From the sequence record NC_028659.1: DNA of 64,000 nucleotides. The stretch is one strand, 5' to 3'. The notes under the pieces are model-generated. The model worked only from the letters and a program-made list of their open reading frames with translations. It was not told the origin of the DNA and ran no database searches. This stretch comes from Klebsiella phage vB_KpnM_KB57. This document shows, in pieces, positions 11,166-50,569 of the stretch; the stretch's first letter is position 1; each line of letters starts with the position of its first letter. The position numbers and the translations under genes are program-made.

Positions 11166-11221
11166 AAAACCTCCTCAATAAGCTTGTTATGATTTTATCA
11201 TAAATCTTCAAATAAAACAAC

Positions 11222-28803: not shown

Positions 28804-28885
28804 TGGATGCGTGGATGGGAGTCGAACCCACAATTTTCGGCTTATGAGGCCAACGTGATCTATATATCCGTTTCACTAACACGCA
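28804..28885 (-). tRNA. tRNA-Met/Ile2 (anticodon CAT)
   Basis: Hand-folded cloverleaf: T-arm GUGGG-UUCGACU-CCCAU, anticodon loop CUCAUAA, 3' CCA encoded. Confidence 0.55.
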
Positions 28886-28891
28886 ATTATT

Positions 28892-28966
28892 TGGTGCAAC
28901 CTTCAGGTAACGATCCTGACTATCTGGCTTTTCAGGCCAGCACACATCCGTCTATGTCAAAGTTGC
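28892..28966 (-). tRNA. tRNA-Phe (GAA), atypical T-loop
   Basis: Acceptor GCAACUU/AGGUUGC, anticodon stem CUGGC/GCCAG, loop CUGAAAA, discriminator A + CCA. T-loop AUCGUUA is non-canonical. Confidence 0.45.
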
Positions 28967-28972
28967 ATAATG

Positions 28973-29049
28973 TGGTGGGCGACAGGGGACTCGAACCCCC
29001 AAAATTCGGAATCTAAATCCGACACGTATACCAATTCCATCAATCGCCC
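28973..29049 (-). tRNA. tRNA with Leu anticodon UAG but short (class I) variable loop
   Basis: Acceptor GGGCGAU/GUCGCCC, disc A, CCA; anticodon stem UCGGA/UCCGA, loop UUUAGAU; variable region only AUUUU. Confidence 0.45.
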
Positions 29050-29084
29050 GTGCGCTTGGGTCCGAAGAAGTCCAAGCCTTAATT

Positions 29085-29160
29085 TGGTGGAGTCACTGAG
29101 AATCGAACTCAGTTCTACAAGGTGCAAGCCTGTAATTTTATCCAAATAAACTATAACCCC
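29085..29160 (-). tRNA. tRNA-Ala (TGC)
   Basis: Anticodon stem ACAGG/CUUGU, loop CUUGCAC; T-arm CUGAG-UUCGAUU-CUCAG; CCA encoded. Confidence 0.55.
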
Positions 29161-29163
29161 AAT

Positions 29164-29237
29164 TGGTGTGGATGGAAGGACTCGAACCTACATCAAACGG
29201 CTTCGTAGACCGTTGCCTGTCCGTCAGGACACCCACA
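29164..29237 (-). tRNA. tRNA-Arg (ACG)
   Basis: Anticodon stem ACGGU/GCCGU, loop CUACGAA; CCA encoded. Confidence 0.5.
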
Positions 29238-29242
29238 TAATT

Positions 29243-29319
29243 TGGTCTCCATAGAGTGACTCGAACACTCAACCTCCTGGTCCCAAACCAGGCGCTCTAC
29301 ACTATTGAGCTACACGGAG
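29243..29319 (-). tRNA. tRNA-Pro (TGG)
   Basis: D-arm GCUC-AAUAGUGUA-GAGC, anticodon stem CCUGG/CCAGG, loop UUUGGGA; CCA encoded. Confidence 0.55.
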
Positions 29320-29402
29320 AGATAGGTGCAGAATTTTAATTATCCCAGACACTGCAACTGGTATCGCTGGCTAGCTAATATCATGCCCCGTTAGGGTACA
29401 AT

Positions 29403-29462
29403 TGGTTTGATACGTCGAACTCATTTTGAGTGCCTTCCGGCAATTTACATCAACATATCAAA
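29403..29462 (-). pseudogene. truncated tRNA-like element (about 60 nt)
   Basis: 7-bp acceptor-like pairing UUUGAUA/UAUCAAA + CCA and a UUCGACG T-loop-like motif, but too short for a cloverleaf. Confidence 0.25.
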
Positions 29463-29463
29463 T

Positions 29464-29539
29464 TGGCGAGGATAACGGGATTCGAACCCGTGACTCCGGC
29501 GTGACAGGCCAGTATGTTTGCCGCTAATACCATATCCCC
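29464..29539 (-). tRNA. tRNA-Asp (GTC)
   Basis: T-arm ACGGG-UUCGAAU-CCCGU, anticodon loop CUGUCAC, disc G + CCA. Confidence 0.5.
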
Positions 29540-29546
29540 ATGAATT

Positions 29547-29631
29547 TGGCGACGAGCGTAGGAATTGAACCTACATAGAGCTAATGCTCGCGGATTAACA
29601 GTCCGCCGTTCTACCAATGAACCAGCTCGTC
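29547..29631 (-). tRNA. tRNA with Asn anticodon GUU and a long (class II-like) variable arm
   Basis: Clean cloverleaf: acceptor GACGAGC/GCUCGUC, D GUUC-AUUGGUA-GAAC, anticodon stem GCGGA/UCCGC, loop CUGUUAA. Variable arm is a 15-nt stem-loop GAGCAUUAGCUCUAU. T-arm GUAGG-UUCAAUU-CCUAC; disc G + CCA. Confidence 0.45.
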
Positions 29632-29691
29632 ATTTAAATACTTTATCAGTGAAAACAACCTTTTGCAAGAATTATTTTAACCGATTCAATT

Positions 29692-29768
29692 TGGTGGGAA
29701 GGGAGGGATTTGAACCCATCGTCTCTTCGCTTAAAAGGCGAATGCCTGGCCGCTCGGCTACCTACCCA
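29692..29768 (-). tRNA. tRNA-Lys (TTT)
   Basis: Anticodon stem UUCGC/GCGAA, loop CUUUUAA; UUCAAAU T-loop; CCA encoded. Confidence 0.5.
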
Positions 29769-29847
29769 AATATTTGCCCCTTGACGGTATCCAACCCGTG
29801 ATCCCATCTCGCCTGTCGTAGACCGGGCTGCTGACAGTCCAGCAATT

Positions 29848-29940
29848 TGGAGGAAGATAATGGAGTCGAACCATCACCGGGGGATCGCCCCGATGGGCCA
29901 GGGTTCAAATCTGGTTGCGTACCACTACGCCCTATCTTCC
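29848..29940 (-). tRNA. tRNA-Ser (TGA)
   Basis: 93 nt with long variable stem-loop; acceptor GGAAGAU/AUCUUCC; anticodon loop UUUGAAC; CCA encoded. Confidence 0.5.
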
Positions 29941-30021
29941 GAATTCAATGGCATTTAAGCCAGTTAGTGTTTCCCTGGATTTATACACGCTGGTTCACTA
30001 ACCCCACACTCGTGTTTAAAT

Positions 30022-30115
30022 TTGGCGGAAGATGCAAGACTTGAACTCGCACACCCCTTTCGGAGCTACTGTCTCTTTAGCAAAGAGATCCCTTACCTGA
30101 TTAGGGTTAATCTTC
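30022..30115 (-). tRNA. tRNA-Ser (GCT)
   Basis: 94 nt, long variable arm, anticodon loop UUGCUAA, T-arm GCGAG-UUCAAGU-CUUGC, disc G + CCA. Confidence 0.5.
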
Positions 30116-30262
30116 CAATTGTTCTTTAATTTCTTTACGAAGATCTTCTTTTTCTTTCGCACGAGTAATAGGGACTGATTGAATTTCTTCTGCAACACCA
30201 CAGTTACTACCGTGGAGCCTACAGCGTCCAAACACTTTCTTGCAACGCAAAAGTTTCTGCAT
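30106..30262 (-). CDS. small Cys-rich protein (51 aa) inside tRNA cluster
   Basis: ATG preceded by GGAGGATTT. Sequence MQKLLRCKKVFGRCRLHGSNCGVAEEIQSVPITRAKEKEDLRKEIKEQLED; its last codons and stop (GAA GAT TAA) overlap the 5' end of tRNA-Ser(GCT). Confidence 0.35.
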
Positions 30263-30277
30263 AAATCCTCCATAAAG

Positions 30278-30368
30278 TGGCGGTGGAAGTAGGATTCGAA
30301 CCTACGGACCCCTTTTGGGGGCCTACACCTTTCCAAGGTGCTGTCTTAAACCTCTCGACCATTCCACC
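30278..30368 (-). tRNA. tRNA-Ser (GGA)
   Basis: 91 nt, long variable arm AGGCCCCCAAAAGGGGUCC, anticodon stem GCACC/GGUGU loop UUGGAAA, CCA encoded. Confidence 0.5.
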
Positions 30369-30453
30369 AAATTCGCGGCAGATATCGTACAAACGAAAAT
30401 CTCGACTAGAACACATGACGTGGGAAGATAGAGATAATCACGTATCTGCAAAT

Positions 30454-30529
30454 TGGGGTGACCTATGGGACTTGAACCCATGACTGCCCGGATCACAACC
30501 GGGAATTCTACCAACTGAATTAAGGCCAC
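30454..30529 (-). tRNA. tRNA-His (GTG)
   Basis: Anticodon stem CCCGG/CCGGG, loop UUGUGAU; disc C + CCA. Confidence 0.5.
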
Positions 30530-30589
30530 ATTTCAGTGCTCTCTTTGATGCCGCTGTACGAAGTACGGAAGCTGGAAAGCACTCAAAAA

Positions 30590-30664
30590 TGGCAGGAGAT
30601 GGTGGATTCGAACCACCGATGCTGATATCAAAGACCAGTGCCGTAACCGCTTGGCTAATCTCCT
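30590..30664 (-). tRNA. tRNA-Gln (TTG)
   Basis: T-arm GGUGG-UUCGAAU-CCACC, anticodon stem CUGGU/AUCAG loop CUUUGAU; CCA encoded. Confidence 0.5.
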
Positions 30665-30778
30665 ATACGCGCCTCGTGATCCTTGGTAATTTGTATATCT
30701 CTGTTGCAAATAGAGGCTAGTGACAAATACGGTAATCAAAAGACGACTTCGTGGATGCCTCCACTCTCCCACCGGATA

Positions 30779-30855
30779 TGGCAGGGACCCTGGGATTCGA
30801 ACCCAGAACCTGCGGATTTGGAATCCGCTGCACTAGCCAGTTGTGCTAAGTCCCT
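30779..30855 (-). tRNA. tRNA-Trp (CCA)
   Basis: Anticodon stem GCGGA/UCCGC, loop UUCCAAA; T-arm CUGGG-UUCGAAU-CCCAG; CCA encoded. Confidence 0.55.
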
Positions 30856-30864
30856 ATAACGTAA

Positions 30865-30934
30865 CGGGGCGACCCTGAATCGAACAGGGAACTACCACTG
30901 ACGAGTGGCCTGTTTACCATTAGCCTATCGCCCC
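30865..30934 (-). tRNA. tRNA-like gene with 6-nt anticodon loop, no encoded CCA (identity undetermined)
   Basis: Good acceptor (GGGGCGA/UCGCCCC) and T-arm (CCCUG-UUCGAUU-CAGGG), but the anticodon arm GCCAC-UCGUCA-GUGGU has only a 6-nt loop; no CCA encoded. Confidence 0.3.
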
Positions 30935-31068
30935 CTTATTTGGTGCGGCAACACAGGTAATGAGTCTGCTCGGACATGAGAGGTGATCAACCTCCATAAA
31001 ATGCCAGCCGCAACATTAACCGGTATGTTTGCAGCCCCATCTTCGTGATGGCACGTTACCGCATTATT

Positions 31069-31144
31069 TGGCACTCCCACCGAGGATCGAACTCGGATTT
31101 CCAGATTGAAAGTCTGACGGCCTGTCCATTTAGCCGATAGGAGC
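31069..31144 (-). tRNA. tRNA-Glu (TTC)
   Basis: Anticodon stem UCAGA/UCUGG, loop CUUUCAA; T-arm CCGAG-UUCGAUC-CUCGG; CCA encoded. Confidence 0.45.
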
Positions 31145-31215
31145 ATTTTTTGGTGTGGTACTCTAAACAATTCTTCTGACGATACAGATGCCTCTTGTTT
31201 ATTTCCCACATTATT

Positions 31216-31289
31216 TGGAGCGTCTAGAGGGAATCGAACCCTACTCTGCGAGGCTTGGAAGGCCTGCGACACACCTCGTGCTTAGACGC
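31216..31289 (-). tRNA. tRNA-Gly (TCC)
   Basis: Anticodon stem AGGC/GCCU, loop CUUCCAA; disc U + CCA. Confidence 0.45.
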
Positions 31290-31296
31290 CTTAAAT

Positions 31297-31371
31297 TGGT
31301 GGGAGTATCTGGGATCGAACCAGAGACCTCTCGATTATCGATCGAGCGTTCTACCGCTGAACTATACCCCC
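31297..31371 (-). tRNA. tRNA-Ile (GAT) (C at position 33)
   Basis: D-arm GUUC-AGCGGUA-GAAC, anticodon stem CUCGA/UCGAG, loop UCGAUAA; CCA encoded. Confidence 0.4.
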
Positions 31372-31377
31372 ATTAAT

Positions 31378-31464
31378 TGGTGCGCCGTGATAGAGTCGAA
31401 CTACCCGAGCCTTTTGAGCAACAGATTTACAGTCTGTCCCGCTACCCCTACGGTCTAACGACGC
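31378..31464 (-). tRNA. tRNA-Tyr (GTA)
   Basis: 87 nt class II; anticodon stem ACAGA/UCUGU, loop CUGUAAA; disc A + CCA. Confidence 0.5.
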
Positions 31465-31466
31465 AT

Positions 31467-31817
31467 TTAACCTTGTTTGAACTGAACAATATCTGTTGTG
31501 AATGGCTTACTCATAGGAGTAGATTTCTTATCATCAACATTAGTTGTTTCAGCTTCTTCATTCTCTTCATCGAAGTAATCAGAAAGCATTTGTTCACCTT
31601 TCTCAATTACAAATCGAGCAATATTTTCCCTGATATTGTCCTTTGTTGTAGCGCTTGTCATAAGGTCTTTTAGCACTTTATGAGCATCAGGAATCATAGC
31701 AATCATATTGGTCTTAAGGTCAAGGATATTCTTCTCAAGCTGAATAGCATTAGACTCTTCTTTAAGGGGTCTACCTTTTCCTCTACGACGCTTTGTAAGT
31801 TGTTGTTTTACTGCCAT
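31467..31817 (-). CDS. small DNA-binding protein with N-terminal AT-hook-like motif (hypothetical)
   Basis: 116 aa; MAVKQQLTKRRRGKGRPLKEE contains an RGRP AT-hook core; acidic C-terminus; embedded in the tRNA cluster. Confidence 0.35.
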   Translation of the reverse strand: MAVKQQLTKRRRGKGRPLKEESNAIQLEKNILDLKTNMIAMIPDAHKVLKDLMTSATTKDNIRENIARFVIEKGEQMLSDYFDEENEEAETTNVDDKKSTPMSKPFTTDIVQFKQG

Positions 31818-31902
31818 AATAACCCCACTTATTAATGTTATCAGATTTAAATTTATCTGTCAAGGGCCATTTTATCATTTTTTATAAAAATATTCAACAA
31901 CT

Positions 31903-31976
31903 TGGAGCACGGTAGGTGAATCGAACACCTGACATTCGGTTTGCAGCCGAAGCTGTTGCCACTCCAGCAACCGTGC
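31903..31976 (-). tRNA. tRNA-Cys (GCA)
   Basis: D-arm GCUG-GAGUGGCAA-CAGC, anticodon stem UUCGG/CCGAA loop CUGCAAA; CCA encoded. Confidence 0.5.
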
Positions 31977-32092
31977 TTTTGTGGGACCCGATTATTTCAA
32001 TTCGCTCCCACACATTCGGGTCAAGACGTGTCCTATAGTCTTTCGACGCTTCCACAGCTCGGAGTAAACCCGTCCCGGCTGTCCTGTGAATT

Positions 32093-32174
32093 TGGCGAAG
32101 GCGGCAGGATTCGAACCCGCATACTCCAATTACTCGATTAACGACGGGTTAGAAGCCCGTTGAGATACGCCCTC
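32093..32174 (-). tRNA. aberrant tRNA-like gene with Arg(UCU)-type anticodon stem-loop
   Basis: Good acceptor (GAGGGCG/CGCCUUC, G, CCA) and T-arm (GCGGG-UUCGAAU-CCUGC), and a stem-loop ACGGG-CUUCUAA-CCCGU. There is no recognisable D-arm, and 23 extra nt lie between the anticodon arm and T-arm. Confidence 0.3.
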
Positions 32175-32183
32175 TTAAACTGA

Positions 32184-32258
32184 TGCGCCCTCCCGGACTC
32201 GAACCGGGAACCCTGGGGGCTTAACACCCATGCCTCTGCCAGATTGGACCAAGGACGC
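32184..32258 (-). tRNA. tRNA with Leu anticodon UAA but class I architecture, no encoded CCA
   Basis: Acceptor GCGUCCU/AGGGCGC, disc A; anticodon stem UGGGU/CCCCA, loop GUUAAGC; short variable loop; T-arm CCCGG-UUCGAGU-CCGGG. Confidence 0.35.
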
Positions 32259-32535
32259 AAAGCATTTATGTGCTGCGACTCTCTCAAAACACTTGTCGGG
32301 AGAAGGTCAAGAAATATCCGCGAAATACCCCTATCGTCACACCCTATGCAATGTCTGTCGTTTCGGTTTGCAACCCTTGCGACTTCTATTCCAAATGGAG
32401 AAAGCCCAGCCATAAATGTTTTGTGGAGCAGGGTGGTGGAATCTAACCACCTATGTATTCTCCACCGCACGTATGTAGCGGGGATATTTTCAGGTCTGGA
32501 TGGACCTCGCGGTTGACAAACCGCCTACCCTGCAT

Positions 32536-32610
32536 TGGCTTCTCGAACAGGAATCGAACCTGTACCGTCCCTATCGTGGGACCGCTCTAACCAAAGTAAG
32601 CTATCGAGAA
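32536..32610 (-). tRNA. tRNA-Ile (GAT)-like (C33)
   Basis: Acceptor UUCUCGA/UCGAGAA, disc G + CCA; anticodon stem GUCCC/GGGAC, loop ACGAUAG; T-arm ACAGG-UUCGAUU-CCUGU. Confidence 0.4.
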
Positions 32611-32616
32611 ATTGTT

Positions 32617-32692
32617 TGGTGCTCGCAGTAGGACTTGAACCCACGACCTTCTCCTTACAAGGGAGTTGCTCTACCAACTGAGCTATACGAGC
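32617..32692 (-). tRNA. tRNA-Thr (TGT)
   Basis: Canonical D-arm GCUC-AGUUGGUA-GAGC, anticodon stem ACUCC/GGAGA loop CUUGUAA, disc A + CCA. Confidence 0.6.
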
Positions 32693-32699
32693 AAGAAAT

Positions 32700-33090
32700 G
32701 CTGTTTCCGATTAACAGCCTGGAGGAGTCAGTTAGCCATATCTTGTGAGCTAAGATCCTATATCCAGGATTTAAGTAATCAAAGAAATTTTAGCTTTATG
32801 GTTTAGAAGTTTCAAGTTTAAACATTAAGCTTTGAACGATAATCTTTGAATGTTGAATGTTGAAGTCTTTCGAATTCGCGATTCGACAATTTCGATCAAA
32901 CCGCATCATTGTGCGGACTGACGGAAACATACGTTTAAGTATCATCCTGTACGATTATGTTCGGAGCAGTTTAACCTCCGGCCCCGGTAGAGGCAAGATG
33001 TTTCTGACTTCGCTAACCAAAAACAGCATTTAAAAACTTTACCAGCTATCCGCAGGAATTACAAGATGTTAATCAAGAATTCCTGCAAAT
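32700..33090. repeat. AT-rich non-coding region with short direct repeats (CTTTGAA/TGTTGAA units) upstream of the minus-strand tRNA cluster
   Basis: About 390 nt without ORFs; repeats such as aagctttgaacga, aatctttgaatgttgaatgttgaag and ttcgaattcgcgattcgacaatttcgatc. Confidence 0.35.
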
Positions 33091-33093
33091 ATT

Positions 33094-33741
33094 TTAGATT
33101 GATCCTTCAATCTCTACTTCAGTCCGTGCATTTGACTCGGAAAGAACAAAGTCAACGTTAGACTTAAAGTCTTCAATCTCTGCTTCCAGAGAACGAATGC
33201 GATCTGCCAGACCCAGTGGGTCAACAATGGAAGGAGTTCCCATGCTACGAACTGGCGCTTCTACTACAGCCAACTGTGCAGCGTCTGGCGCTTTATCACG
33301 TTGGACATATGGAGCACGAGCAGCTTCAAGCTTCGCCTCGAATTCCTGTGTATCACGGTTCAGGCGAACCTGAGCATGATTATACTGAGACTTCAGTTTG
33401 CCAAGCAGAAGCTCTTTGAAAACGATGGTGCGTTTACGTTCAATCGCCTGAGCTACGGTCATAGACTCGCCAGCGATCTCAACTTTTGTTACAGCGTTTG
33501 ACTGAACAACTTTCGCCTTCAGGTCGTCGCGAACAGCCAGAAGATCCTGAACACCCTGGAAGTCTGCCTGAGCAGATTTCTCGAAGTCCTCAACGCTCTG
33601 GATAGAGCCTGGGATCTGACGGTTTGCGTCAGTGCCTTTCGCGATGTGAATCGTGTTCAGCGCTTCGATACGCTTCTGAATCTTTTCCTCAACCTTGGTC
33701 AGGGTAGCCAGAGCGCGGGTTACAGACATCTTAGTAGACAT
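33094..33741 (-). CDS. coiled-coil protein (hypothetical)
   Basis: 215 aa, Ala/Glu/Lys/Val-rich heptad pattern; SD GAGAGGAG. Confidence 0.4.
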   Translation of the reverse strand: MSTKMSVTRALATLTKVEEKIQKRIEALNTIHIAKGTDANRQIPGSIQSVEDFEKSAQADFQGVQDLLAVRDDLKAKVVQSNAVTKVEIAGESMTVAQAIERKRTIVFKELLLGKLKSQYNHAQVRLNRDTQEFEAKLEAARAPYVQRDKAPDAAQLAVVEAPVRSMGTPSIVDPLGLADRIRSLEAEIEDFKSNVDFVLSESNARTEVEIEGSI

Positions 33742-33815
33742 AGAATTCTCCTCTCATGAAATTTAAAATTTGAGTTACTTCAAATATTTGCCGACATCCG
33801 TGTCGGCACTACGCA

Positions 33816-34427
33816 TTAGTTTTTGCCAGTGTTGACAACAACGCCCTGGCGGTTAGCATCAGCTTTTGCGATTTCCAGACGGGTTTCGCGTTCAGCCTTC
33901 AGATCACCACGCGCTGCTTCAAGCTGTTCTGTCAGCATTGCAATACGGTCATCCTTAGCCTTGCTATTCGCAGTAAGTTCTGCAATTGCAACCTTGTGAG
34001 CAGATTCCAGATTTGCCTTAACCGCATTCAGTTCGATTGCAGCGCTACGTTTAACGTCGGCAACTGCGCTTTCTACAGCTTCAGCATTGTTCTGCTGAGA
34101 GATCGCCAGCTCTGCACGAAGGTCTTCAACAACACCCGGTTCTACAGCTACAAGGCCGCGAGCTTTCAGGATAGAATTCAGAACGGAATCTTCGTTTTCC
34201 AGAACTTTGATCTTCAGCTTGGATTTTTCTTCTGCCAGTTTTTCGTTGAACTGAACTTCAATTTGTCCCAGTTCCTGCTGCTTAAACTGAATTTCCTGAC
34301 TGATCTTTTCAGACCCTTCTGCCAGAGATTGCAGTTCAGCGACTACTTTAGTCAGACCAGTAGCGGCAGTGGTTACTGCTTTAGTGGCACGTTCAGTTAC
34401 GGAAATTACAGTTTTAGAATCAGTCAT
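33816..34427 (-). CDS. coiled-coil protein (hypothetical)
   Basis: 203 aa, highly helical Ala/Glu/Lys-rich; AAGGAGAAC SD. Confidence 0.4.
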   Translation of the reverse strand: MTDSKTVISVTERATKAVTTAATGLTKVVAELQSLAEGSEKISQEIQFKQQELGQIEVQFNEKLAEEKSKLKIKVLENEDSVLNSILKARGLVAVEPGVVEDLRAELAISQQNNAEAVESAVADVKRSAAIELNAVKANLESAHKVAIAELTANSKAKDDRIAMLTEQLEAARGDLKAERETRLEIAKADANRQGVVVNTGKN

Positions 34428-34458
34428 TAAGTTCTCCTTTGCGTTAAATTAGGTTTAA

Positions 34459-34487
34459 ATACTACACTTACAGATTGTGTTTGTCAA
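34459..34487 (-). promoter_or_regulatory. sigma70-like promoter (minus strand) for coiled-coil gene
   Basis: On the minus strand, TTGACA - 17 nt - TAGTAT about 30 nt upstream of the ATG at 34427. Confidence 0.4.
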
Positions 34488-34605
34488 GCGAATCTTTGAT
34501 TATTTCTTCGGTGGTAGGGTTGTTTTCAAACCATGACCAATAATACCAAAGAACAAGCAGGAAAGAGATCACTGACATGATGATAAAGATAACACCGCCA
34601 CTCAT
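34468..34605 (-). CDS. small single-TM membrane protein (45 aa)
   Basis: MSGGVIFIIMSVISFLLVLWYYWSWF...; its ATG overlaps the upstream stop (ATGA). Confidence 0.35.
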   Translation of the reverse strand: MSGGVIFIIMSVISFLLVLWYYWSWFENNPTTEEIIKDSLDKHNL

Positions 34606-34838
34606 CGTACAACGTCCTTAATGGAGTCACAAACTTCACCAACGACGCCTGCGGTAGGTGATACGATAATCTCATCAGCGGCGTCAAGAACTTCTGCGGC
34701 TACATCTACAAAAGGTTCTGCAACAGTTGCCGTGACAACAACAGCAGTACCAACAATATCGCCAGCCATACGTAACAGGGATCCGAACATTTCGTTCTCC
34801 TTTTGGTTTAGATTTGAAACGAGAGCACTTTCGTCCAT
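34602..34838 (-). CDS. small hypothetical protein (78 aa)
   Basis: ORF with Val/Ala/Asp-rich sequence, coupled to the downstream small membrane ORF. Confidence 0.3.
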   Translation of the reverse strand: MDESALVSNLNQKENEMFGSLLRMAGDIVGTAVVVTATVAEPFVDVAAEVLDAADEIIVSPTAGVVGEVCDSIKDVVR

Positions 34839-34874
34839 TTAAGCTATCGCCCTGTGCCACTACGCGAGCCGGGC

Positions 34875-34918
34875 CAGCAAGAACGGGAGTCGAACCCGTA
34901 TCTCTCTCATTTCAAACT
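34875..34918 (-). pseudogene. tRNA 3'-half remnant (T-arm + acceptor strand)
   Basis: ACGGG-UUCGACU-CCCGU T-arm followed by a 7-nt acceptor-like strand, but no matching 5' half before the next tRNA. Confidence 0.3.
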
Positions 34919-34994
34919 TGGTGGGGCATGAAGGATTCGAACCTTCGACCTTCGGCTTAAGGGGCCGCTACACTAACCGCTGTGTTAATACCCC
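34919..34994 (-). tRNA. tRNA-Lys (CTT)-like (C33)
   Basis: Acceptor GGGGUAU/AUGCCCC, disc A + CCA; T-arm GAAGG-UUCGAAU-CCUUC; anticodon stem CGGC/GCCG with loop CCCUUAA. Confidence 0.4.
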
Positions 34995-35055
34995 GAAAAC
35001 ATGCCCGTGTTTTTAAAGACGTTTCACGGAATCGTCATTCCCCATGCCGGAGAAA

Positions 35056-35367
35056 TTACTTTTTCTTCTTACTCTTCGTGGCTACGGTTTCAACAACCTT
35101 AGTTTCCTTTACCTTACCAGCACGTTCACGCTTGGTCTTGCCTGTGCGGATGCGGTAAGAAGCAGAGATAATCTGACCACCTTCAATCCGGGTTTCGGAT
35201 TTATACTCTCCTTTACGGCGATCGAAAACTGATACGGTTTTCTCTACACCACCGAGACGCACATCGTGCGGCGCAGAATGAGTCTGAGTAGACTTCGACT
35301 CAAACTGGAAAGGCTGTTTGATAGCGTCGATGGCGGATACTTTCTTAGCAGTATTTTTCTTAGTCAT
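35056..35367 (-). CDS. basic Lys-rich protein (possible nucleic-acid-binding)
   Basis: 103 aa with a KKKK tail and many Lys/Arg residues. Confidence 0.35.
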   Translation of the reverse strand: MTKKNTAKKVSAIDAIKQPFQFESKSTQTHSAPHDVRLGGVEKTVSVFDRRKGEYKSETRIEGGQIISASYRIRTGKTKRERAGKVKETKVVETVATKSKKKK

Positions 35368-35459
35368 AATTTTCTCCTTTGCATTTTATTTGGGAATTTG
35401 TCCCGTTTATGTTCATGAGGATACTAACTCAATCAGATATCCTCGTCAACATTTTTAAT

Positions 35460-35537
35460 TGGTGGCCCCCGGAGGATTCGAACCTGCCTACCTCTCGATT
35501 ATGAGTCGATTGCTCATACCTAATGAGCTTGAGGGCT
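35460..35537 (-). tRNA. tRNA-Met (CAT), initiator-like unpaired 1:72
   Basis: Anticodon loop CUCAUAA; acceptor 5' AGCCCUC vs 3' GGGGGCC leaves an A1xC72 mismatch; CCA encoded. Confidence 0.45.
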
Positions 35538-35539
35538 TA

Positions 35540-35612
35540 TCGTTCAGAGTGGAATTGAACCACTGACCTTGTCCGTATGAAGAACCTGCTCTACCAACTG
35601 AGCTACTGAACG
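35540..35612 (-). tRNA. tRNA-Met/Ile2 (CAT), no encoded CCA
   Basis: Canonical D-arm GCUC-AGUUGGUA-GAGC, anticodon loop UUCAUAC, T-arm AGUGG-UUCAAUU-CCACU. Confidence 0.5.
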
Positions 35613-38674: not shown

Positions 38675-38735
38675 GTTTTGTTTCTCCTTTGTTTGTTTAA
38701 TAGGGCGATTGTACGCCCACTTATTCATTTGTCAA

Positions 38736-39536
38736 TTAAAAGTTTTCGGTCCAGTCGTGGTACGCGTAGATTTCATCAACGCCGCCTTCGTAGATAACTT
38801 CTTTACCGAAGGAAAAGATACCGTGAGTTACGTAAAGAATAACACGTTTTGCTCCTTTTGCCTTCAATGCTTGTGCCAGGGCGATGAATGTGCGACCACC
38901 ATCGCAGATATCATCGACAATAACACACTCGCGGCCTTCAACATCACCGAAAACAGCAGTCCCGGTAATTTCATTTGTCTTCAGATCGCGCACTTTTCCA
39001 GCTTCCACCAGAGGGAGGCGGAGACGATCGGAAACTTTCTGAGCTTTTTTACGTGCTCCGGCGTCAGGTGCCACGATAACAACATCTTTTCCAACCAGGC
39101 CTTCATGGAATTCCGCAATAAGAGCATCCTGACCACGAATTTTAACGTTGTTAAGCAACGCAGCAGAGACATCGCTGTGCGGATCATCGACAATGACCTT
39201 GTCAAACCCAAGAGAGTTGACGATATTTGCGAAAACTTTGATGGATAACGCTTCACCAGGTTGCATTACGCGGTCCTGACGTGCATATGGGATGTACGGC
39301 AAGTGCAAAGTGAACTGTGCAGTATGATGGAGGCCTTCAAGGCGAGAACATGCATCAACCAACATGGCAAGTGCCATAACATCAGTAGAATTTTTAATTT
39401 TCGCAGTGATGTCTACGAAACCAATACCACCTTTCGGGGTATGCGCCATATCGATTCTAACCTGTTCTTCACCACCTTTGAACGTAAAGTGATCGACAGG
39501 AACTACCAGTTTGTTCAGACGAAGTTCTAAACTCAT
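38736..39536 (-). CDS. prs: ribose-phosphate pyrophosphokinase (PRPP synthetase)
   Basis: 266 aa; PRPP-binding loop VIVDDICDGGRT and the overall Prs layout. Confidence 0.6.
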   Translation of the reverse strand: MSLELRLNKLVVPVDHFTFKGGEEQVRIDMAHTPKGGIGFVDITAKIKNSTDVMALAMLVDACSRLEGLHHTAQFTLHLPYIPYARQDRVMQPGEALSIKVFANIVNSLGFDKVIVDDPHSDVSAALLNNVKIRGQDALIAEFHEGLVGKDVVIVAPDAGARKKAQKVSDRLRLPLVEAGKVRDLKTNEITGTAVFGDVEGRECVIVDDICDGGRTFIALAQALKAKGAKRVILYVTHGIFSFGKEVIYEGGVDEIYAYHDWTENF

Positions 39537-40016: not shown

Positions 40017-40177
40017 CAATACTAACTTATCATTTAAACTAACTTATGATCTTTAAAAACAATAAAACATAAGATCTAAAACAAGATCTTTTACTACAGA
40101 GTATAAATACTCTATATCATAGAGTCGGTGACTCGATGAGTTGGATTATCGTATGAAGAAAAGATGATGTCAAGTGT

Positions 40178-40205
40178 TGACATGAAATTTTTAACGTGTA
40201 GAATC
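40178..40205 (+). promoter_or_regulatory. sigma70-like early promoter for plus-strand operon
   Basis: TTGACA - 16 nt - TAGAAT, about 25 nt upstream of the AAAGGAGATTGTT SD and start. Confidence 0.5.
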
Positions 40206-41221: not shown

Positions 41222-41457
41222 GCAGACTTGCAAAACTAAACAGAAGAAAGAAAATGTTGAAAGAGAAGCAGAAAAACATCACGGCTACTTTCCAAGTATG
41301 CCGAGAGGCTATGAAGGCAAATTTGATAACACCTTCGCAGAGACAGTTGATCCGTGATATTCTTCGTCCTGTACTCCACGACCTTGAAGGTGAAGTTCGT
41401 GATGTTACACTTCATATTCAAGAGGAACTTGTAAAAAGATATCAGGAGGATACATGA
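41218..41457 (+). CDS. hypothetical protein
   Basis: 79 aa, basic N-terminus. Confidence 0.3.
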   Translation: MSRLAKLNRRKKMLKEKQKNITATFQVCREAMKANLITPSQRQLIRDILRPVLHDLEGEVRDVTLHIQEELVKRYQEDT

Positions 41458-42047
41458 TCGACCACGTCACGTCAGACACGCATTGGTGGCATACCAACAT
41501 CCTTGGTTTCCCATCGTGTGATAAATTCCGTAAGAACCTGTACGGTCCAAAAGAAGACCGTGAAAGTCTGTATGCCATGAATGCAGGCATGATTGAAATC
41601 TGGAATAAGCACGTCAAACCAGATGATGTCGTAGCACATCTTGGTGATTTCGTGATTGCTTACGGACGCTATATTGAGCCTCGTGTTCGTGACATCCTTG
41701 AAAAGATCAACGGAAAGATCATTCTCGTTGGTGGAAATCACGATAACCGTGATACGAAACGTATCTTCCGTGAGTTTGGTCATGAAGTTGTTGATTATAA
41801 AGAGATTGACTTTAGCACAGGGAAAGAGAAGGTGCGGGTATGTATGTCTCACTATCCGTTTGCATCGTGGAACAAAGCACACCACGGGTCAGTTATGTTG
41901 CACGGGCATAGCCACGGCTCCTATACGGCCCCTGGTGGACGTATTCTGGATGTTGGCTGGGATGTACATGGTCGTCCTCTTACGATGCGTGAAGCCGTCC
42001 TGATGTGCCTCAAAAAACCAATCTACACTGCTGACCACGGAGAATAA
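41454..42047 (+). CDS. calcineurin-like metallophosphoesterase (Ser/Thr or polynucleotide 2',3'-phosphatase)
   Basis: Motifs HLGDF (GDxx), VGGNHDNRD (GNHD), LHGHSHGS (GHxH); 197 aa. Confidence 0.55.
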   Translation: MIDHVTSDTHWWHTNILGFPSCDKFRKNLYGPKEDRESLYAMNAGMIEIWNKHVKPDDVVAHLGDFVIAYGRYIEPRVRDILEKINGKIILVGGNHDNRDTKRIFREFGHEVVDYKEIDFSTGKEKVRVCMSHYPFASWNKAHHGSVMLHGHSHGSYTAPGGRILDVGWDVHGRPLTMREAVLMCLKKPIYTADHGE

Positions 42048-42048
42048 G

Positions 42049-42405
42049 ATGCATAACAAAGAACGGAATTTCATAGCACGTAACACGGCGAAGTCTTTCT
42101 TCGCCACTATTCATATCGCCGGGGACTATACTCAGGCAAAGAATCTTTGTCGTCAGTGGGTTATGCAAGGTGCTTGTGTGCAGATTTCCCCATGCACTTA
42201 TATCTACACAGGCGGTGCGGAAGAGGGTATGACTGTTCGGTTAATGCAGTATCCGCGTTTCCAGAGAACTGAGATTGAAATCCTTGAGATGGCTCGGGAG
42301 TTGGGAACTTACCTCGCTCAAGAGCTTTGCCAGATCAGTTTCAGTATTGAAACACCTTACAATACCACTTATTACCAAGCTGAGGGATACGATAAGCGCT
42401 CATGA
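42049..42405 (+). CDS. hypothetical protein
   Basis: 118 aa; SD GGAGAATAAG. Confidence 0.3.
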   Translation: MHNKERNFIARNTAKSFFATIHIAGDYTQAKNLCRQWVMQGACVQISPCTYIYTGGAEEGMTVRLMQYPRFQRTEIEILEMARELGTYLAQELCQISFSIETPYNTTYYQAEGYDKRS

Positions 42406-42605
42406 AAATACACAACATAACCAAAGACAGGATTCATTTCATAATGGATTCAGGAGCTTACGGATCTATCTCCAAGGCAGATGCCATGAAATTTCTGTAT
42501 GCTTCAAATATTCCTCAGGCAAAGCTTGACTCCCGTTCAGGAGAGTGTATTATTGACTCTATCACGAATATACAAGACCTGTGGGAGATATATCATGAAG
42601 TTTAA
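42402..42605 (+). CDS. hypothetical protein
   Basis: 67 aa. Confidence 0.25.
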   Translation: MKIHNITKDRIHFIMDSGAYGSISKADAMKFLYASNIPQAKLDSRSGECIIDSITNIQDLWEIYHEV

Positions 42606-43557
42606 TGTTGACGATCTGGTCGCTAAAAATCTGGTAACCAAAAAGACTTACACCGAAGGCCCGTTCGCGGGTCTGTCTGTGCTGAAGTATAAGAACAATG
42701 TGTTCTGGGATAACCTGTGGCATACTGACCCACGCCTGCTTGAGTGCCGTGGCATGGTTGTTGATTCAGAAGACAACGTGATTATCTGGCCTTTCACTAA
42801 GATTTTCAACCGCTTCGAGAATGGAACTGACCTTCCTCTTGACAAACCGGTTGTTTGTTCCCGCAAGGTCAATGGTTTTATGGCCACAGCGGCAATACAC
42901 AAAGACAAGCTCCTCGTTTCAACAACAGGGACATTGGATTCTGAGTTTTCAGAATTGGCTCGTAAGTACCTCGAAAAAATGAATTTTGATCTGATTTCTT
43001 TCCGTGAAGATTACACTTTCATTTTCGAAATATGCGATAGCAGCGACCCACATATTGTGGAAGAGAAAGAAGGTGCTTATCTGATTGGTGTCCGTGACCT
43101 CGCTTTAAACGGTGTTATGGTTGAAGAGCACAAACTTGATCGCATCGCTGAAGTGATCGGTGCAAAACGTCCTCAATGGGATGTCCGTGCATTTGGCGAT
43201 GTCGTTGCAGCCAGTCATGCTGTTAGCCACGAAGGTTTTGTTGTCCGAAATATCGGGACAGATGACGAAAATAGCGAACTACTTTTGAAAATCAAGTCCC
43301 CACATTACCTGGCGAAGAAATTCCTGATGCGTGGAGGTGATAACAAGTGGGATATGATCTGGGATAACCCGAAAGAGGCCAAGAAGCGTATTGACGAAGA
43401 GTATTACGAGTTGCTAGACCATATTCGTGAGTATTACTCTAAAGATGTTTGGTCCGCGATGGATTCTCAAAAACGACGTCAGGTTGTTGAAGATTACTTC
43501 GCTATCGAAGACATGTTTGATCGTGGTAGTCGTTTTTATGTTGGGGTTCCAAAATGA
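42595..43557 (+). CDS. RNA ligase (Rnl2-like nucleotidyltransferase ligase)
   Basis: Start at MKFNVDD (GGGAGA SD). Motif I RKVNGF (KxNG as in Rnl2 KIHG), motif III-like FIFEICD, motif IV HEGFVVRN, motif V LLLKIK. Confidence 0.5.
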   Translation: MKFNVDDLVAKNLVTKKTYTEGPFAGLSVLKYKNNVFWDNLWHTDPRLLECRGMVVDSEDNVIIWPFTKIFNRFENGTDLPLDKPVVCSRKVNGFMATAAIHKDKLLVSTTGTLDSEFSELARKYLEKMNFDLISFREDYTFIFEICDSSDPHIVEEKEGAYLIGVRDLALNGVMVEEHKLDRIAEVIGAKRPQWDVRAFGDVVAASHAVSHEGFVVRNIGTDDENSELLLKIKSPHYLAKKFLMRGGDNKWDMIWDNPKEAKKRIDEEYYELLDHIREYYSKDVWSAMDSQKRRQVVEDYFAIEDMFDRGSRFYVGVPK

Positions 43558-43898
43558 TTATCTGGCTTGATGACCTGAGAGATCCAAAAGACTACGGGTA
43601 TCCTGATGCCTTGTGGTTCAAGACCTCTCAGAAATTTATGGACTTTCTGGACAACAGGTCAAAGTTCTATCGTTATGTCACAGAGTGGCATTTCGATAAT
43701 GACCTTGGGGAAGGGTCAGAAATGGAGGGCTATGACTGCCTGTTGGCCTTGGAAGAGAAGCTTGTGTATGGAAAACTTCCTGTGCATGATGCTAAACTCT
43801 ATGTCCACACGTCTAACCCTTCTGCGGCACAAAAGTTCATGCTTGCAAAAGAGAGCTTCTTGAAGTATCGTATCACGATCTTAAGAAACAATTACTGA
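43554..43898 (+). CDS. hypothetical protein
   Basis: 114 aa. Confidence 0.3.
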   Translation: MIIWLDDLRDPKDYGYPDALWFKTSQKFMDFLDNRSKFYRYVTEWHFDNDLGEGSEMEGYDCLLALEEKLVYGKLPVHDAKLYVHTSNPSAAQKFMLAKESFLKYRITILRNNY

Positions 43899-43907
43899 GG
43901 AGAAGAG

Positions 43908-44312
43908 ATGGAAAAGACTCTGATTATCCTGCGTGGTGTGTCTGGTGCGGGTAAGTCTACAGTTGCTGAGACAATCGCTGGTAAAGCATGGCCTGTGTTT
44001 GAGGCCGATAAATACCATTATCGGGACGGGGTTTACGACTGGAAGCCTGAAAACATGGCTGTTGCTCATAAGTGGTGTCAAGAACAGGTACGTGAGGCTA
44101 TGGTGTGCCGTATTGCAAAAATTATCGTATCCAACACTTCGACAACAGAGAAGGAACTAAAACCCTACATTGCCCTTGCTGATGAGCACGGATACCAAGT
44201 TATTAGCTTGGTGGTCGAGAATAGGCATGGTAATGATTCTATTCACAATGTTCCGCAGGAAACTCGTGATGCTCAAGAGCTTCGTCTGCGTAACTCATTG
44301 AAATTACAGTAA
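43908..44312 (+). CDS. P-loop polynucleotide kinase-like protein
   Basis: Walker A ILRGVSGAGKST at the N-terminus; 134 aa, Pnk kinase/AAA_33-like size. Confidence 0.45.
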   Translation: MEKTLIILRGVSGAGKSTVAETIAGKAWPVFEADKYHYRDGVYDWKPENMAVAHKWCQEQVREAMVCRIAKIIVSNTSTTEKELKPYIALADEHGYQVISLVVENRHGNDSIHNVPQETRDAQELRLRNSLKLQ

Positions 44313-44320: not shown

Positions 44321-44545
44321 ATGTATAAAGGAAATAACCTACGGGAATCGTTCGAAAATTGGTGGGACTCTCTTAGCGATCCTTGGTCAACACCAGAAGC
44401 AAAATCTGCTGCATGGGAAGCCTGGAAGTTTTCAAATTTACGAGTTCTTAATAAAATTCGTTATATGAAAGGTATTACCGAGCGGTGCAATGGTTATAAT
44501 GAGGCTATGAATGAGATAAATAATGTTATAGGGGAAAATCCATGA
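44321..44545 (+). CDS. hypothetical protein
   Basis: 74 aa. Confidence 0.25.
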   Translation: MYKGNNLRESFENWWDSLSDPWSTPEAKSAAWEAWKFSNLRVLNKIRYMKGITERCNGYNEAMNEINNVIGENP

Positions 44546-45318
44546 GACGTCTTATCGTTATAAGTGGTGCTGGCTTCTCTGCGGAGAGTGGTGTACGTAC
44601 ATTCCGCACAGATACTGAATCTGGTAAAGCCCTGTGGGATGAATACGACCTTGAGGAGGTTTGTAACATACACGCCTTCCGTGGTAACTTCTACCATAAA
44701 ACGCACATGTTTTATAACAAGCGTCGTGCAGAGTTACCAACGGTACATCCGAATGCGGCGCATCTTCGCGTGGCTGAGTGGTACAGACGTTATCCTGGGC
44801 AGGTTGTTAACATGACAACTAACGTTGATGACCTTCTGGAACGTGCGGGTGTCCCTAAAGAAGATACTCTTTACATCCACGGGTATCTGAAAGAAATTCG
44901 ATACAAGCTCCATGAAGATTCTGAAGAGCAGTTGGTTGACATCGGTTACGATGAGGTAGACCCCGACCAATTTCATTGGTGTAAACCAAACGTAGTTTTC
45001 TTTGGTGAGAATGCTCCGGCCTATGGCCCTATGAATGATACCTTGGAGTCATTGACAAATCAGGATCTTGTAATTGTTGTAGGCTGTTCAAATACAGTTA
45101 TTAACTTCAACTGGGAGTTGTTCCCTGCGGTTATGCGGGGGACCAAAGTTGTTGTTGTTAATCCTGCTATTAGGTATGATGAACAAATGATGTATGAGAA
45201 TGCGGGTGTTCTTGTATATCGTACCGGAGCTGTTGATGCCTTTAATAATCCAGGCCTTATCAAGATAGTTGAGAATCACCTTGAAGGTAAGACACCATTG
45301 CAAAGCAAGGAGAAATAA
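44542..45318 (+). CDS. Sir2-family NAD-dependent deacylase / ADP-ribosyltransferase
   Basis: Sirtuin Rossmann signature ISGAGFSAESGVRTFR (GAGxSxxSGIPxFR), NVDDLLE and VVVNP motifs; 258 aa. Confidence 0.6.
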   Translation: MRRLIVISGAGFSAESGVRTFRTDTESGKALWDEYDLEEVCNIHAFRGNFYHKTHMFYNKRRAELPTVHPNAAHLRVAEWYRRYPGQVVNMTTNVDDLLERAGVPKEDTLYIHGYLKEIRYKLHEDSEEQLVDIGYDEVDPDQFHWCKPNVVFFGENAPAYGPMNDTLESLTNQDLVIVVGCSNTVINFNWELFPAVMRGTKVVVVNPAIRYDEQMMYENAGVLVYRTGAVDAFNNPGLIKIVENHLEGKTPLQSKEK

Positions 45319-47693: not shown

Positions 47694-48359
47694 ATGAAAG
47701 AAGCTTACGAAACCCTCAACTCAATGCTGCGCCCAACCTCCCTTGTTAAGTATGCGAAACATGTGGTAGATTGGAATTCTATCGCAGCTTCTGCAAAGGG
47801 TGAATTTACCCCATTGGAAAAGCAGTGGGAGTTTGTCGGAGAGGAGTTAGAAGAAACCGTTAAGGCATTAGCCGAAAATGACCGTAAGGAAGTCATTGAT
47901 GGGGCATGTGACTTGTTTGTTGTAGCGTCGTATGCTTATTGGTTGAGTAATAACCATTCACTATCCTTAAATTATAACCCTGATCTTAAGTTTTCGCTTG
48001 GTAAAGCTTTGGATGCTTTTGCGAATGAAGACTACGAAGAAATGCTTAAATTGAGCACAGCTTTGTTGTTTGGTATTGATATGCAATTGGATAAGAACAT
48101 GAGTAGCGTTCTTGAGTCTAACGATTCTAAATATCCAACACTTAACGAAGTTCAGTCTTTGCATAAAGATCTTGACTTGGTAAAAGCCCTTGAGGCAGAA
48201 TGCGCCTGTATCGAACGGCGTAACGGTGGACGTTATGAAGGTGTTCATTTCTCGATTGTTGATGGGAATATGAAAGAAGAGCCTCGTGTCGTATTCTTCG
48301 ACAAAGGTGGTAAAATCATGAAGCCTGGAACTTTCAAAAAGCCAAACATTATTGTTTGA
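47694..48359 (+). CDS. MazG-like nucleotide pyrophosphohydrolase (putative)
   Basis: WEFVGEELEETVKALAEN...EVIDGACDLFVV resembles the MazG/all-alpha NTP-PPase EExxE...D metal-binding helix pair. Confidence 0.35.
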   Translation: MKEAYETLNSMLRPTSLVKYAKHVVDWNSIAASAKGEFTPLEKQWEFVGEELEETVKALAENDRKEVIDGACDLFVVASYAYWLSNNHSLSLNYNPDLKFSLGKALDAFANEDYEEMLKLSTALLFGIDMQLDKNMSSVLESNDSKYPTLNEVQSLHKDLDLVKALEAECACIERRNGGRYEGVHFSIVDGNMKEEPRVVFFDKGGKIMKPGTFKKPNIIV

Positions 48360-50562: not shown

Positions 50563-50569
50563 GGGAATA

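Follow-up and report, generated by a model that had tools for sequence, protein, structure and literature searches.

Do phages other than T4 carry enzymes that mend RNA cut by host defences? The question is raised by a locus of Klebsiella phage vB_KpnM_KB57, in which genes for a metallophosphoesterase, a predicted RNA ligase and a P-loop kinase lie within 3 kb, near a large array of tRNA genes. We analyzed a stretch of 64,000 nucleotides from this phage (sequence record NC_028659.1), here called the window. Defence systems that cleave tRNA or other RNAs (PrrC, RloC, PARIS, retron-PtuAB, Cas13, Cas12a3) are now regarded as widespread, and the Pnkp/Rnl1 pair of T4 is the only experimentally established phage repair answer.

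A preliminary description of the window had read the three genes as an RNA repair set equivalent to bacterial Pnkp and to the T4 pathway. Related loci have also been described independently. Iyer, Burroughs, Anantharaman and Aravind (2022, Viruses 14:1977) defined a type-2, sirtuin-centred RNA-repair neighbourhood, with Escherichia phage V5 and Proteus phage Mydo as prototypes, and read it as a predicted NAD (nicotinamide adenine dinucleotide)-linked RNA repair system whose central sirtuin, they propose, removes 2'-phosphates like KptA. The gene content in the window is identical, all six genes being present between positions 41454 and 48359, and the phage is of the same genus as Mydo; as a prediction, therefore, the locus is already in the literature.

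In this study, we carried out profile, fold and residue comparisons of the encoded proteins and a comparative survey of phage genomes. The best explanation of the locus, to which we assign a probability of roughly 0.65, is an early-expressed phage module that heals and seals RNA as a counter-defence. To the published prediction we add a conserved core of three enzymes, its association with a gene pair resembling NARP1, and three invariant residues (Asn, His and Arg) in the ligase.

Gene content and packing of the locus

The stretch at 41-46.7 kb shares 93-97% identity with Proteus phage Mydo and with four Klebsiella phages, KpS8, KNP2, Seu621 and BIS47, all classified in Vequintavirinae, genus Mydovirus. 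Product names in those records are 'phosphoesterase', 'RNA ligase', 'hypothetical protein' and 'ATPase', then 'Sir2' and 'ATP-dependent DNA ligase'. The promoter match and the genes up to the kinase, including small open reading frames (ORFs), are as follows:

40177..40204, + strand, sigma-70-like promoter match TTGACA-16-TAGAAT, 11/12 positions, a consensus match only
41454..42047, + strand, calcineurin-type metallophosphoesterase, 197 amino acids (PF00149, phrog_547)
42049..42405, + strand, conserved ORF of 118 amino acids (phrog_4848, 2.6e-51)
42402..42605, + strand, ORF of 67 amino acids overlapping both neighbours (phrog_33712, phrog_20147)
42595..43557, + strand, predicted ATP-dependent RNA ligase of the Rnl1/Trl1 clade, 320 amino acids (PF09511)
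43554..43898, + strand, cREC, a cyclic-phosphate-processing receiver domain protein, 114 amino acids (PF20274)
43908..44312, + strand, P-loop kinase of polynucleotide-kinase type, 134 amino acids (PF13671, phrog_505)

The three genes first noticed were all recovered as ORFs on the + strand where they had been placed, and their products, together with cREC, exceed the curated Pfam cut-offs; the scores of the three are well above anything that chance would give. They do not form a bare trio. Two small ORFs intervene between the phosphoesterase and the ligase, and the cREC gene lies between the ligase and the kinase; cREC, a sirtuin, a MazG-like protein, a NADAR-domain protein and the adjoining NARP1-like pair had all been overlooked.

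Between 41218 and 47685, neighbouring genes abut or overlap by 1-11 nucleotides (4 nucleotides where the ligase stop meets the cREC start), an operon-like packing that is directly observed. The promoter match may mark the start of a transcription unit, as far as a consensus match can indicate, and no terminator-like site was found on the + strand from that match until 47112. The packing, the promoter match and the terminator gap together suggest a single early transcription unit. Back-to-back 11/12 sigma-70-like matches on both strands occupy 40145-40204, exactly at the strand switch, and a change in the sign of GC skew (~40 kb) coincides with them.

The RNA ligase

The ligase ORF spans 42499-43557, with its true start at 42595 (MKFNV...), as in all homologues and the RefSeq annotation. 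The protein matches RNA_lig_T4_1 (PF09511) with 50.5 bits (cut-off 28.3, E=3e-13) and carries nucleotidyltransferase motifs I, III, IV and V with the lysine nucleophile. Motifs I, IV and V, recognized earlier as RKVNGF, EGFVVRN and LLKIK, are all present and conserved in the family alignment, at K91-V-N93-G94, E213-G-F-V-V-R and K232-I-K234; the Arg of motif IV is common, not invariant, in the family. Residues invariant between the family and T4 Rnl1 are K91 (T4 K99), E145 (E159), E213-G214 (E227-G228) and K232/K234 (K240/K242), and counterparts of T4 R54, K75, K99, G102, E159, E227/G228 and K240/K242 are kept. These include the ligands of the ATP gamma-phosphate (T4 Arg54, Lys75), which lie in an Rnl1-like N-terminal subdomain. 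The position of T4 K119 is occupied by Thr. The C-terminal domain is short and predicted to be helical (residues 236-305); it is ~45 residues shorter than that of T4 Rnl1, where this domain defines the family and confers tRNA specificity, and the two align poorly.

The ligase had been labelled Rnl2-like, and this label was wrong. A profile of the family matched T4 Rnl1 (2C5U) at 1.4e-10 and nothing of Rnl2 type. Foldseek comparisons gave template modelling (TM) scores of 0.60-0.63 for Rnl1, 0.55-0.58 for Trl1 and Rnl3, and ~0.4 for Rnl2. Because profile, fold and conserved T4 Rnl1 residues agree, we assign the protein to the Rnl1/Trl1 clade as a predicted RNA ligase. A DNA-ligase paralogue was considered and ruled out by the fold comparison.

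In fungal Trl1-LIG, the requirement for a 2'-phosphate (2'-PO4) is set by Asn150 (in the motif I sequence KENG), His227 (motif III Glu+9), and Arg334 and Arg337 (second motif V Lys+9 and +12); Asn150, His227 and Arg337 bind a 2'-PO4 mimic. The phage ligase has N93 in motif I (KVNG), H153 at motif III Glu+8 and R246 at the second motif V Lys+12, on the first helix of the C-terminal domain. All three are unchanged throughout 25 family members and three aligned ligases from distant lineages, and T4 Rnl1 lacks all three, with D, I and D in these columns. Motif IV reads EGFVVR in the phage ligase and EGFVIR in Trl1. Where the fungal RxxR has its first Arg (Lys+9), the phage ligases have Phe or Ala. 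Neither the full profile nor a sub-profile from motif I to the C-terminal domain matched a Trl1 chain at E<=10, and the fold match to Trl1 is confined to the adenylyltransferase domain and does not extend to the five-helix fungal C-domain. The residues N93, H153 and R246 nevertheless fit the hypothesis of Iyer et al. that a 2'-PO4 intermediate is involved.

The P-loop kinase

The kinase matches AAA_33 (PF13671) with 41.7 bits (cut-off 27, E=1.8e-10) and phrog_505, 'polynucleotide kinase', at 1.4e-9. The Walker A motif GVSGAGKST, by which it had been recognized, is present and invariant in the family alignment. Against structures in the PDB, its profile best matched the kinase of the Pnkp1-Rnl-Hen1 complex (Pnkp1, 4GP7; 2.4e-5). 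That match spans the full length, as do those to the Clostridium thermocellum Pnkp kinase domain (8e-4) and T4 Pnk (1LY1, 1.5e-3). Thymidylate kinase appeared in the same search at E=0.8 only. With RNA-repair polynucleotide kinases as its solved relatives, an identity as a deoxynucleoside monophosphate or thymidylate kinase was ruled out. The Pnkp model TIGR04075 was hit in its kinase part only, at 16 bits against a cut-off of 750.

Residues G13-x-G15-K16-S17 and D34 align with K15/S16 and D35 of T4 Pnk, and the P-loop and Asp are invariant. We take T4 D35 to be the catalytic general base and R38 the Arg that binds the acceptor. R38 is replaced by H37 in the phage kinase, at a variable position, and only one of the lid arginines, R106, is conserved. 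By sequence comparison, the fold and family are thus of polynucleotide-kinase type; a 5'-OH polynucleotide is a candidate acceptor, although R38 is not conserved. The orthologue in phage Bas54 has already been named 'polynucleotide kinase' by the BASEL authors.

A PADLOC scan of the locus proteins matched no defence or signalling model, save a weak match of the kinase to 'CARF4--CARF_PDDEXK_AAA' (E=4.7e-7), which hints that similar kinase domains may occur in CARF-associated defence proteins.

The metallophosphoesterase and cREC

The phosphoesterase matches Metallophos (PF00149) with 29.2 bits (cut-off 21.5, E=1.5e-6) and phrog_547, 'phosphoesterase', at 6e-51. Its metal-binding motifs are S7-D8-x-H10, G64-D65, G94-N95-H96-D97, H133 and G151-H152-x-H154, and none of the metal ligands varies among orthologues, even those of only 38% identity; the calcineurin-like signatures noted earlier are thus all in place. 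Its nearest solved relative is Aquifex aq_1665 (1XM7, 1.4e-14), with YfcE marginal. Because a profile search of solved structures matched neither a lambda-phosphatase nor a Pnkp phosphatase, the protein, by its profile of aq_1665/YfcE type, is analogous and not orthologous to the Pnkp phosphatase. It also weakly matches the ligase-associated endonuclease PdeM (E=0.0065, far under the cut-off). We regard it as a candidate 3'-end healing enzyme, acting as a 2',3'-cyclic phosphodiesterase and/or a phosphomonoesterase.

The product of the gene between the ligase and the kinase belongs to cREC_REC (PF20274; 63 bits, cut-off 27, E=4e-17). It scores above the gathering threshold, has a receiver fold with an intact acidic pocket, the Asp pair, the further Asp and the Thr/Ser and Lys, and has no histidine kinase partner. 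Iyer et al. (2021) defined the cREC family by a predicted role in the processing of cyclic phosphates; Iyer et al. (2022) described it as experimentally uncharacterized, and these authors predict that it acts also on ADP-ribose cyclic phosphate.

In Pectobacterium phage DU_PP_V (T5-like) and Morganella phage vB_Mm5 (T4-like), the cREC gene (4992-5336 of our locus L019 and 4992-5336 of L020, respectively) lies inside a tRNA array, with tRNA genes on both flanks. No ligase or kinase homologue was found within 5 kb on either side of cREC in these two phages, and the ORFs flanking cREC in DU_PP_V, vB_Mm5 and phAPEC8 have no informative domains. In three phAPEC8-like loci (L013, L017, L021), cREC is kept, with or without the phosphoesterase, and ligase, kinase and sirtuin are gone. 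Because cREC and the phosphoesterase are retained where ligase and kinase have been lost, cREC, alone or with the phosphoesterase, may serve a role independent of ligation.

The identities and folds of these proteins and their intact catalytic residues are matters of direct observation.

Distribution of the module in phages

We searched 50,697 GenBank phage records by tblastn; in addition, a cREC-based search of related loci gave 13 closely related viral contigs. Ligase homologues were found in 696 records and kinase homologues in 619, with near-identical counts by genus (ligase/kinase: Escherichia 199/198, Pseudomonas 175/173, Klebsiella 34/34, Acinetobacter 24/24, Salmonella 14/14). The cREC gene occurs in 354 records, chiefly of enterobacterial myoviruses. 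The sirtuin clade is found in 989, many of them T5-like; Salmonella accounts for 289 of its records, against 14 each for ligase and kinase.

Gene order in Mydo-like genomes is that of the window. In rV5-like genomes, the phosphoesterase and kinase share one strand, and ligase, cREC, sirtuin and MazG diverge from them. The phAPEC8-like genomes have the order cREC-phosphoesterase-ligase-kinase; some lack ligase and kinase, and phAPEC8 itself has cREC only. In six other lineages, phosphoesterase, ligase and kinase lie at most 1.9-4.7 kb apart, in differing orders: Pakpunavirus HJ01, Otagovirus phiPsa374, Vibrio phages JSF12 and Bennett (Demerecviridae), Aeromonas phage Akh-2 and Acinetobacter phage Rocket. 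The trio is similarly close-set in rV5-like and phAPEC8-like genomes that have it. Neither cREC nor sirtuin was found at the trio loci of the six other lineages. Because the three genes remain linked there, phosphoesterase, ligase and kinase form the conserved core, and cREC and sirtuin are accessories; this evolutionary linkage, too, is directly observed. Iyer et al. called the phosphoesterase 'occasional', whereas in our survey it is the constant partner, and sirtuin and cREC are dispensable.

Transposon-insertion data by HIDEN-SEQ are available for the rV5-like phage Bas54. During growth on E. coli K-12, insertions are abundant in all of its genes bas54_0207-0211 (sirtuin, a cREC-sized hypothetical protein, RNA ligase, polynucleotide kinase and phosphoesterase), the means being ~88-443 reads per site. 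The ligase homologue tolerates insertions (mean ~190-260 reads per site), whereas rnlA of T4 and Bas37 does not. This tolerance fits a conditionally useful, accessory counter-defence function.

Two further Mydovirus records, OY978796.1 (L028) and OY979426.1 (L029), have annotations out of register with the sequence, with most features marked pseudo or partial, and their product names are untrustworthy. The label 'nicotinamide-nucleotide adenylyltransferase' in OY978796 was discarded for this reason.

Neighbouring genes and the tRNA array

The surroundings of the core include the following features:

28807..35612, - strand, array of ~27 tRNA genes (ARAGORN and Rfam)
36995-38728, - strand, Nampt-like gene (Pfam)
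38736-39536, - strand, Prs-like gene (Pfam)
44321..44545, + strand, ORF of 74 amino acids between kinase and sirtuin (phrog_343, 1.5e-11)
44542..45318, + strand, sirtuin of the Sir2 family without zinc-ribbon cysteines, an accessory (PF02146, 1.3e-23)
47694..48359, + strand, MazG-like nucleotide pyrophosphohydrolase (PF01503, 1.5e-5)
50522-51076, + strand, NADAR-domain protein (PF08719, E=5.7e-35)

The nearest solved relative of the sirtuin is E. coli CobB (5.6e-21). The catalytic His and the NAD-binding GAGxS are kept, and there is only one Cys where CobB has its zinc-ribbon cysteines. The protein matched none of the PADLOC models of defence-type SIR2, and it is not present in the non-enterobacterial lineages surveyed. 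The MazG-like gene is named 'nucleotide pyrophosphohydrolase' in KpS8 and is kept downstream in relatives. The NADAR gene lies ~2 kb farther downstream, and an NAD/ADP-ribose theme runs through the 37-51 kb region.

On the other side of the core, a Prs-like and then a Nampt-like gene lie on the - strand, divergent from the repair genes and 1.9 kb from them. In domain content and gene order, the pair resembles NARP1 (Adps and Namat), which reconstitutes NAD+ (Osterman et al.); the Prs-Nampt order is that of the Bas63 NARP1 operon. A Prs-like gene lies at most ~5 kb from the trio in five of the six other lineages (Pakpunavirus, Otagovirus, the two Vibrio phages and the Acinetobacter phage), and a Nampt-like gene follows it wherever the sequence extends far enough. 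The core trio thus usually neighbours a NARP1-like pair. In Acinetobacter phage vB_AbaM_Rocket, a second 'RNA ligase' gene (10716-11819 of locus L026) lies directly upstream of the Prs-like gene, beside the Rnl1-type set. A 'phage phosphatase' reported in 2026 to extend NARP1 was compared with our metallophosphoesterase and rejected as its counterpart, that enzyme being a Macro-domain protein.

Of the small ORFs, the 67-residue one is found only in some relatives, and the 74-residue one is missing from several. The 118-residue ORF between phosphoesterase and ligase is restricted, in that place, to Mydo-like and closely related loci. Its family comprises 543 clusters at 50% identity (1.8 billion representatives searched), with the consensus ...IAGD...CV.V.P..YVYTGG.E.G..V..INYPRFP...; one representative (P0300) has 2358 amino acids and 26 matched stretches. 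No relative was found by profile search of the PDB or by a Pfam scan of its members.

The tRNA array is on the strand opposite to the trio, its closest gene being 5.8 kb away, at 35612. ARAGORN made 25 calls, two of them with aberrant anticodon loops, and Rfam 23, including two extra to ARAGORN (28807-28885 and 32096-32174, - strand). The array is indeed large; adding the two Rfam-only matches to the 25 calls gives ~27 tRNA or tRNA-like genes, not the ~30 first reported. The aberrant two-base 'anticodons' are at 30865-30934 and 32536-32610 (- strand); Rfam confirms the first (38 bits) and not the second. An Rfam scan of 28-48.5 kb found tRNAs only. A two-layer defence of translation by these tRNAs and the repair genes, as previously proposed, is plausible.

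Proposed mechanism and alternative explanations

In the RNA heal-and-seal reading, 2',3'-cyclic-phosphate and 5'-OH ends would be left by a ribonuclease of the host, for which an anticodon nuclease or some other defence that cuts tRNA is the most plausible candidate. The metallophosphoesterase would heal the 3' end, in this phage lineage with the help of cREC, whose part would be to open the cyclic phosphate; the 5'-OH would be phosphorylated by the P-loop kinase; and the Rnl1/Trl1-clade ligase would reseal the break, using ATP. Phosphoesterase, kinase and ligase would be the core of this pathway and cREC, sirtuin and MazG lineage-specific additions. That RNA, and specifically tRNA, is the substrate, that the 3'-end work is divided in this way, and that the role is counter-defence, we infer. 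RNA repair, as the preliminary description had it, is the best supported account of the locus, although the equivalence to Pnkp is one of analogy only and the module is larger than a trio.

Several observations weigh against this account. The kinase resembles T4 Pnk and Pnkp only weakly (E=1e-3 to 1e-5), and the counterpart of R38 is lost. The sole close solved relative of the phosphoesterase, aq_1665, is an uncharacterized protein, and the phosphoesterase family, which has 1345 phage records with Gram-positive phages among them, extends far beyond that of the ligase. Both cREC and the phosphoesterase persist without ligase and kinase in the phAPEC8-like loci L013 and L017, and phAPEC8 keeps cREC alone. 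NAD/ADP-ribose enzymes abound around the locus, leaving room for readings other than RNA repair. We found no assayed member of the ligase, kinase, phosphoesterase or cREC families and no experimental paper on them. To our knowledge, no cognate host nuclease is known for Klebsiella.

The most substantial alternative, on balance unlikely, is an NAD-coupled pathway of the yeast and plant type, as put forward by Iyer et al. (2022). Here cREC or the phosphoesterase would open the cyclic phosphate to give 3'-OH/2'-PO4 ends, the ligase would require the 2'-PO4, and the sirtuin would move the junction 2'-PO4 onto NAD+ like Tpt1/KptA; cREC, phosphoesterase, NADAR and the NARP1-like pair would then process the ADP-ribose product and rebuild NAD+. 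The published neighbourhood is complete in the window (sirtuin, T4-like ligase, cREC, kinase, MazG and calcineurin-like phosphoesterase), the invariant N93, H153 and R246 match residues by which fungal Trl1-LIG reads the 2'-PO4 and which T4 Rnl1 lacks, motif IV is Trl1-like, the sirtuin is without the zinc ribbon that protein deacylases have, and the NARP1-like pair and a NADAR gene are close by. However, six lineages keep ligases with the Asn, His and Arg without having cREC and sirtuin, and the sirtuin clade, common in T5-like phages, differs in size and genus profile from the ~620-700 records of kinase and ligase. Profiles of the ligase reach T4 Rnl1 only and not Trl1, the His is offset by +8 rather than +9, and the first Arg of RxxR is Phe or Ala. 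A stronger version, in which eukaryote-style Trl1/Tpt1-like ligation is assembled from non-orthologous parts and repair and NAD rebuilding form a closed cycle, is doubtful. In it, the ligase would read the 2'-PO4 via Asn93, His153 and Arg246, the zinc-less sirtuin would be an NAD+-consuming RNA 2'-phosphotransferase, and the NARP1-like pair with cREC and NADAR would return the ADP-ribose by-product to NAD+.

The same surroundings could be read without RNA at all, with cREC, phosphoesterase, sirtuin, MazG and NADAR degrading or recycling nucleotides of host immunity, such as cyclic nucleotides and ADP-ribose derivatives, and lying next to the ligase through clustering of counter-defence genes. 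Consistent with this are the survival of cREC, with or without the phosphoesterase, in phages that lack ligase and kinase, its predicted action on ADP-ribose cyclic phosphate, the adjacent NARP1-like pair and nearby NADAR gene, and the much wider phosphoesterase and sirtuin families. Yet it leaves unexplained the ligase-kinase pair, the near-perfect co-occurrence of the two and the presence of the phosphoesterase within a few kb of them in all lineages sampled, cREC sits inside a tRNA array in two phages, and PADLOC gave only the weak kinase match; we consider it improbable. Processing of DNA ends is more improbable still: kinase, phosphoesterase and ligase, in partnership with the ATP-dependent DNA ligase encoded nearby, would treat nicks with 3'-phosphate and 5'-OH ends in the course of replication or following attack by host nucleases. 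That DNA ligase is encoded 1 kb downstream, one also lies near the trio in phiPsa374, T4 Pnk is active on DNA as well as RNA, and the weak PdeM match points the same way; against this, the phage already has a dedicated DNA ligase, and ligase and kinase co-occur independently of it. Finally, the ligase homologue might be a tail-fibre attachment factor like T4 gp63, its neighbours being unrelated, as the name 'RNA ligase and tail fiber protein attachment catalyst', given to phrog_562 and used in many GenBank records, would have it. This can hardly be upheld, since the name was inherited by annotation transfer, the gene lies in an early, non-structural region dense with nucleotide enzymes, and T4 Rnl1 has a far longer C-terminal domain; an assembly role is also disfavoured because the Bas54 homologue tolerates insertions on E. 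coli K-12, unlike rnlA of T4 and Bas37.

Comparison with known repair systems

The RNA heal-and-seal module follows the logic of T4 Pnkp (pseT) and Rnl1 (rnlA), which reverse PrrC damage: a kinase, 3'-end healing and a ligase. The phage ligase shares the fold and catalytic residues of Rnl1, and the kinase is homologous to the kinase domain of T4 Pnk. In T4, however, a HAD phosphatase is fused to the kinase and the repair genes are dispersed, whereas here a separate metallophosphoesterase (and cREC) is present and the genes are clustered. T4 Rnl1 has a longer C-terminal domain, K119 where the phage ligase has Thr, and no Trl1-like Asn, His and Arg.

The bacterial Pnkp/Hen1 system of C. thermocellum and Pnkp1-Rnl-Hen1 of Capnocytophaga comprise the same three activity classes, and Pnkp1 is the best solved relative of our kinase. 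To this extent, the earlier equation with Pnkp stands. It does not extend to a single polypeptide, a phosphoesterase of lambda-phosphatase type, an Rnl4-type ligase or Hen1: Pnkp is one fused polypeptide with a Hen1 methyltransferase partner, whereas here there are three separate genes and a phosphoesterase of aq_1665/YfcE type, and no Hen1 or methyltransferase domain was found in a scan of ORFs from 36.9 to 52.6 kb.

With fungal and plant Trl1 (LIG-KIN-CPD) and Tpt1, the locus shares KxNG, EGFVxR, a His after motif III and an Arg at motif V Lys+12, and it combines a kinase, a putative cyclic phosphodiesterase and an NAD-using enzyme. Trl1 is one trifunctional enzyme, to which the phage ligase has no profile-level sequence match, whereas the phage proteins are small and separate; the place of its 2H-type CPD would be taken by cREC or the metallophosphoesterase, and that of the Tpt1 2'-phosphotransferase by the sirtuin.

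Significance

What remains of interest is the biochemistry of an already predicted system in a known phage genus. If the 2'-phosphate/sirtuin version were true, it would mean a new sirtuin activity and a first function for cREC. Roughly 600-700 sequenced phages carry the module, some of them candidates for therapy against Klebsiella, E. coli, Pseudomonas, Acinetobacter and Vibrio, and, if it works as proposed, it would generalize the T4 paradigm of RNA repair.

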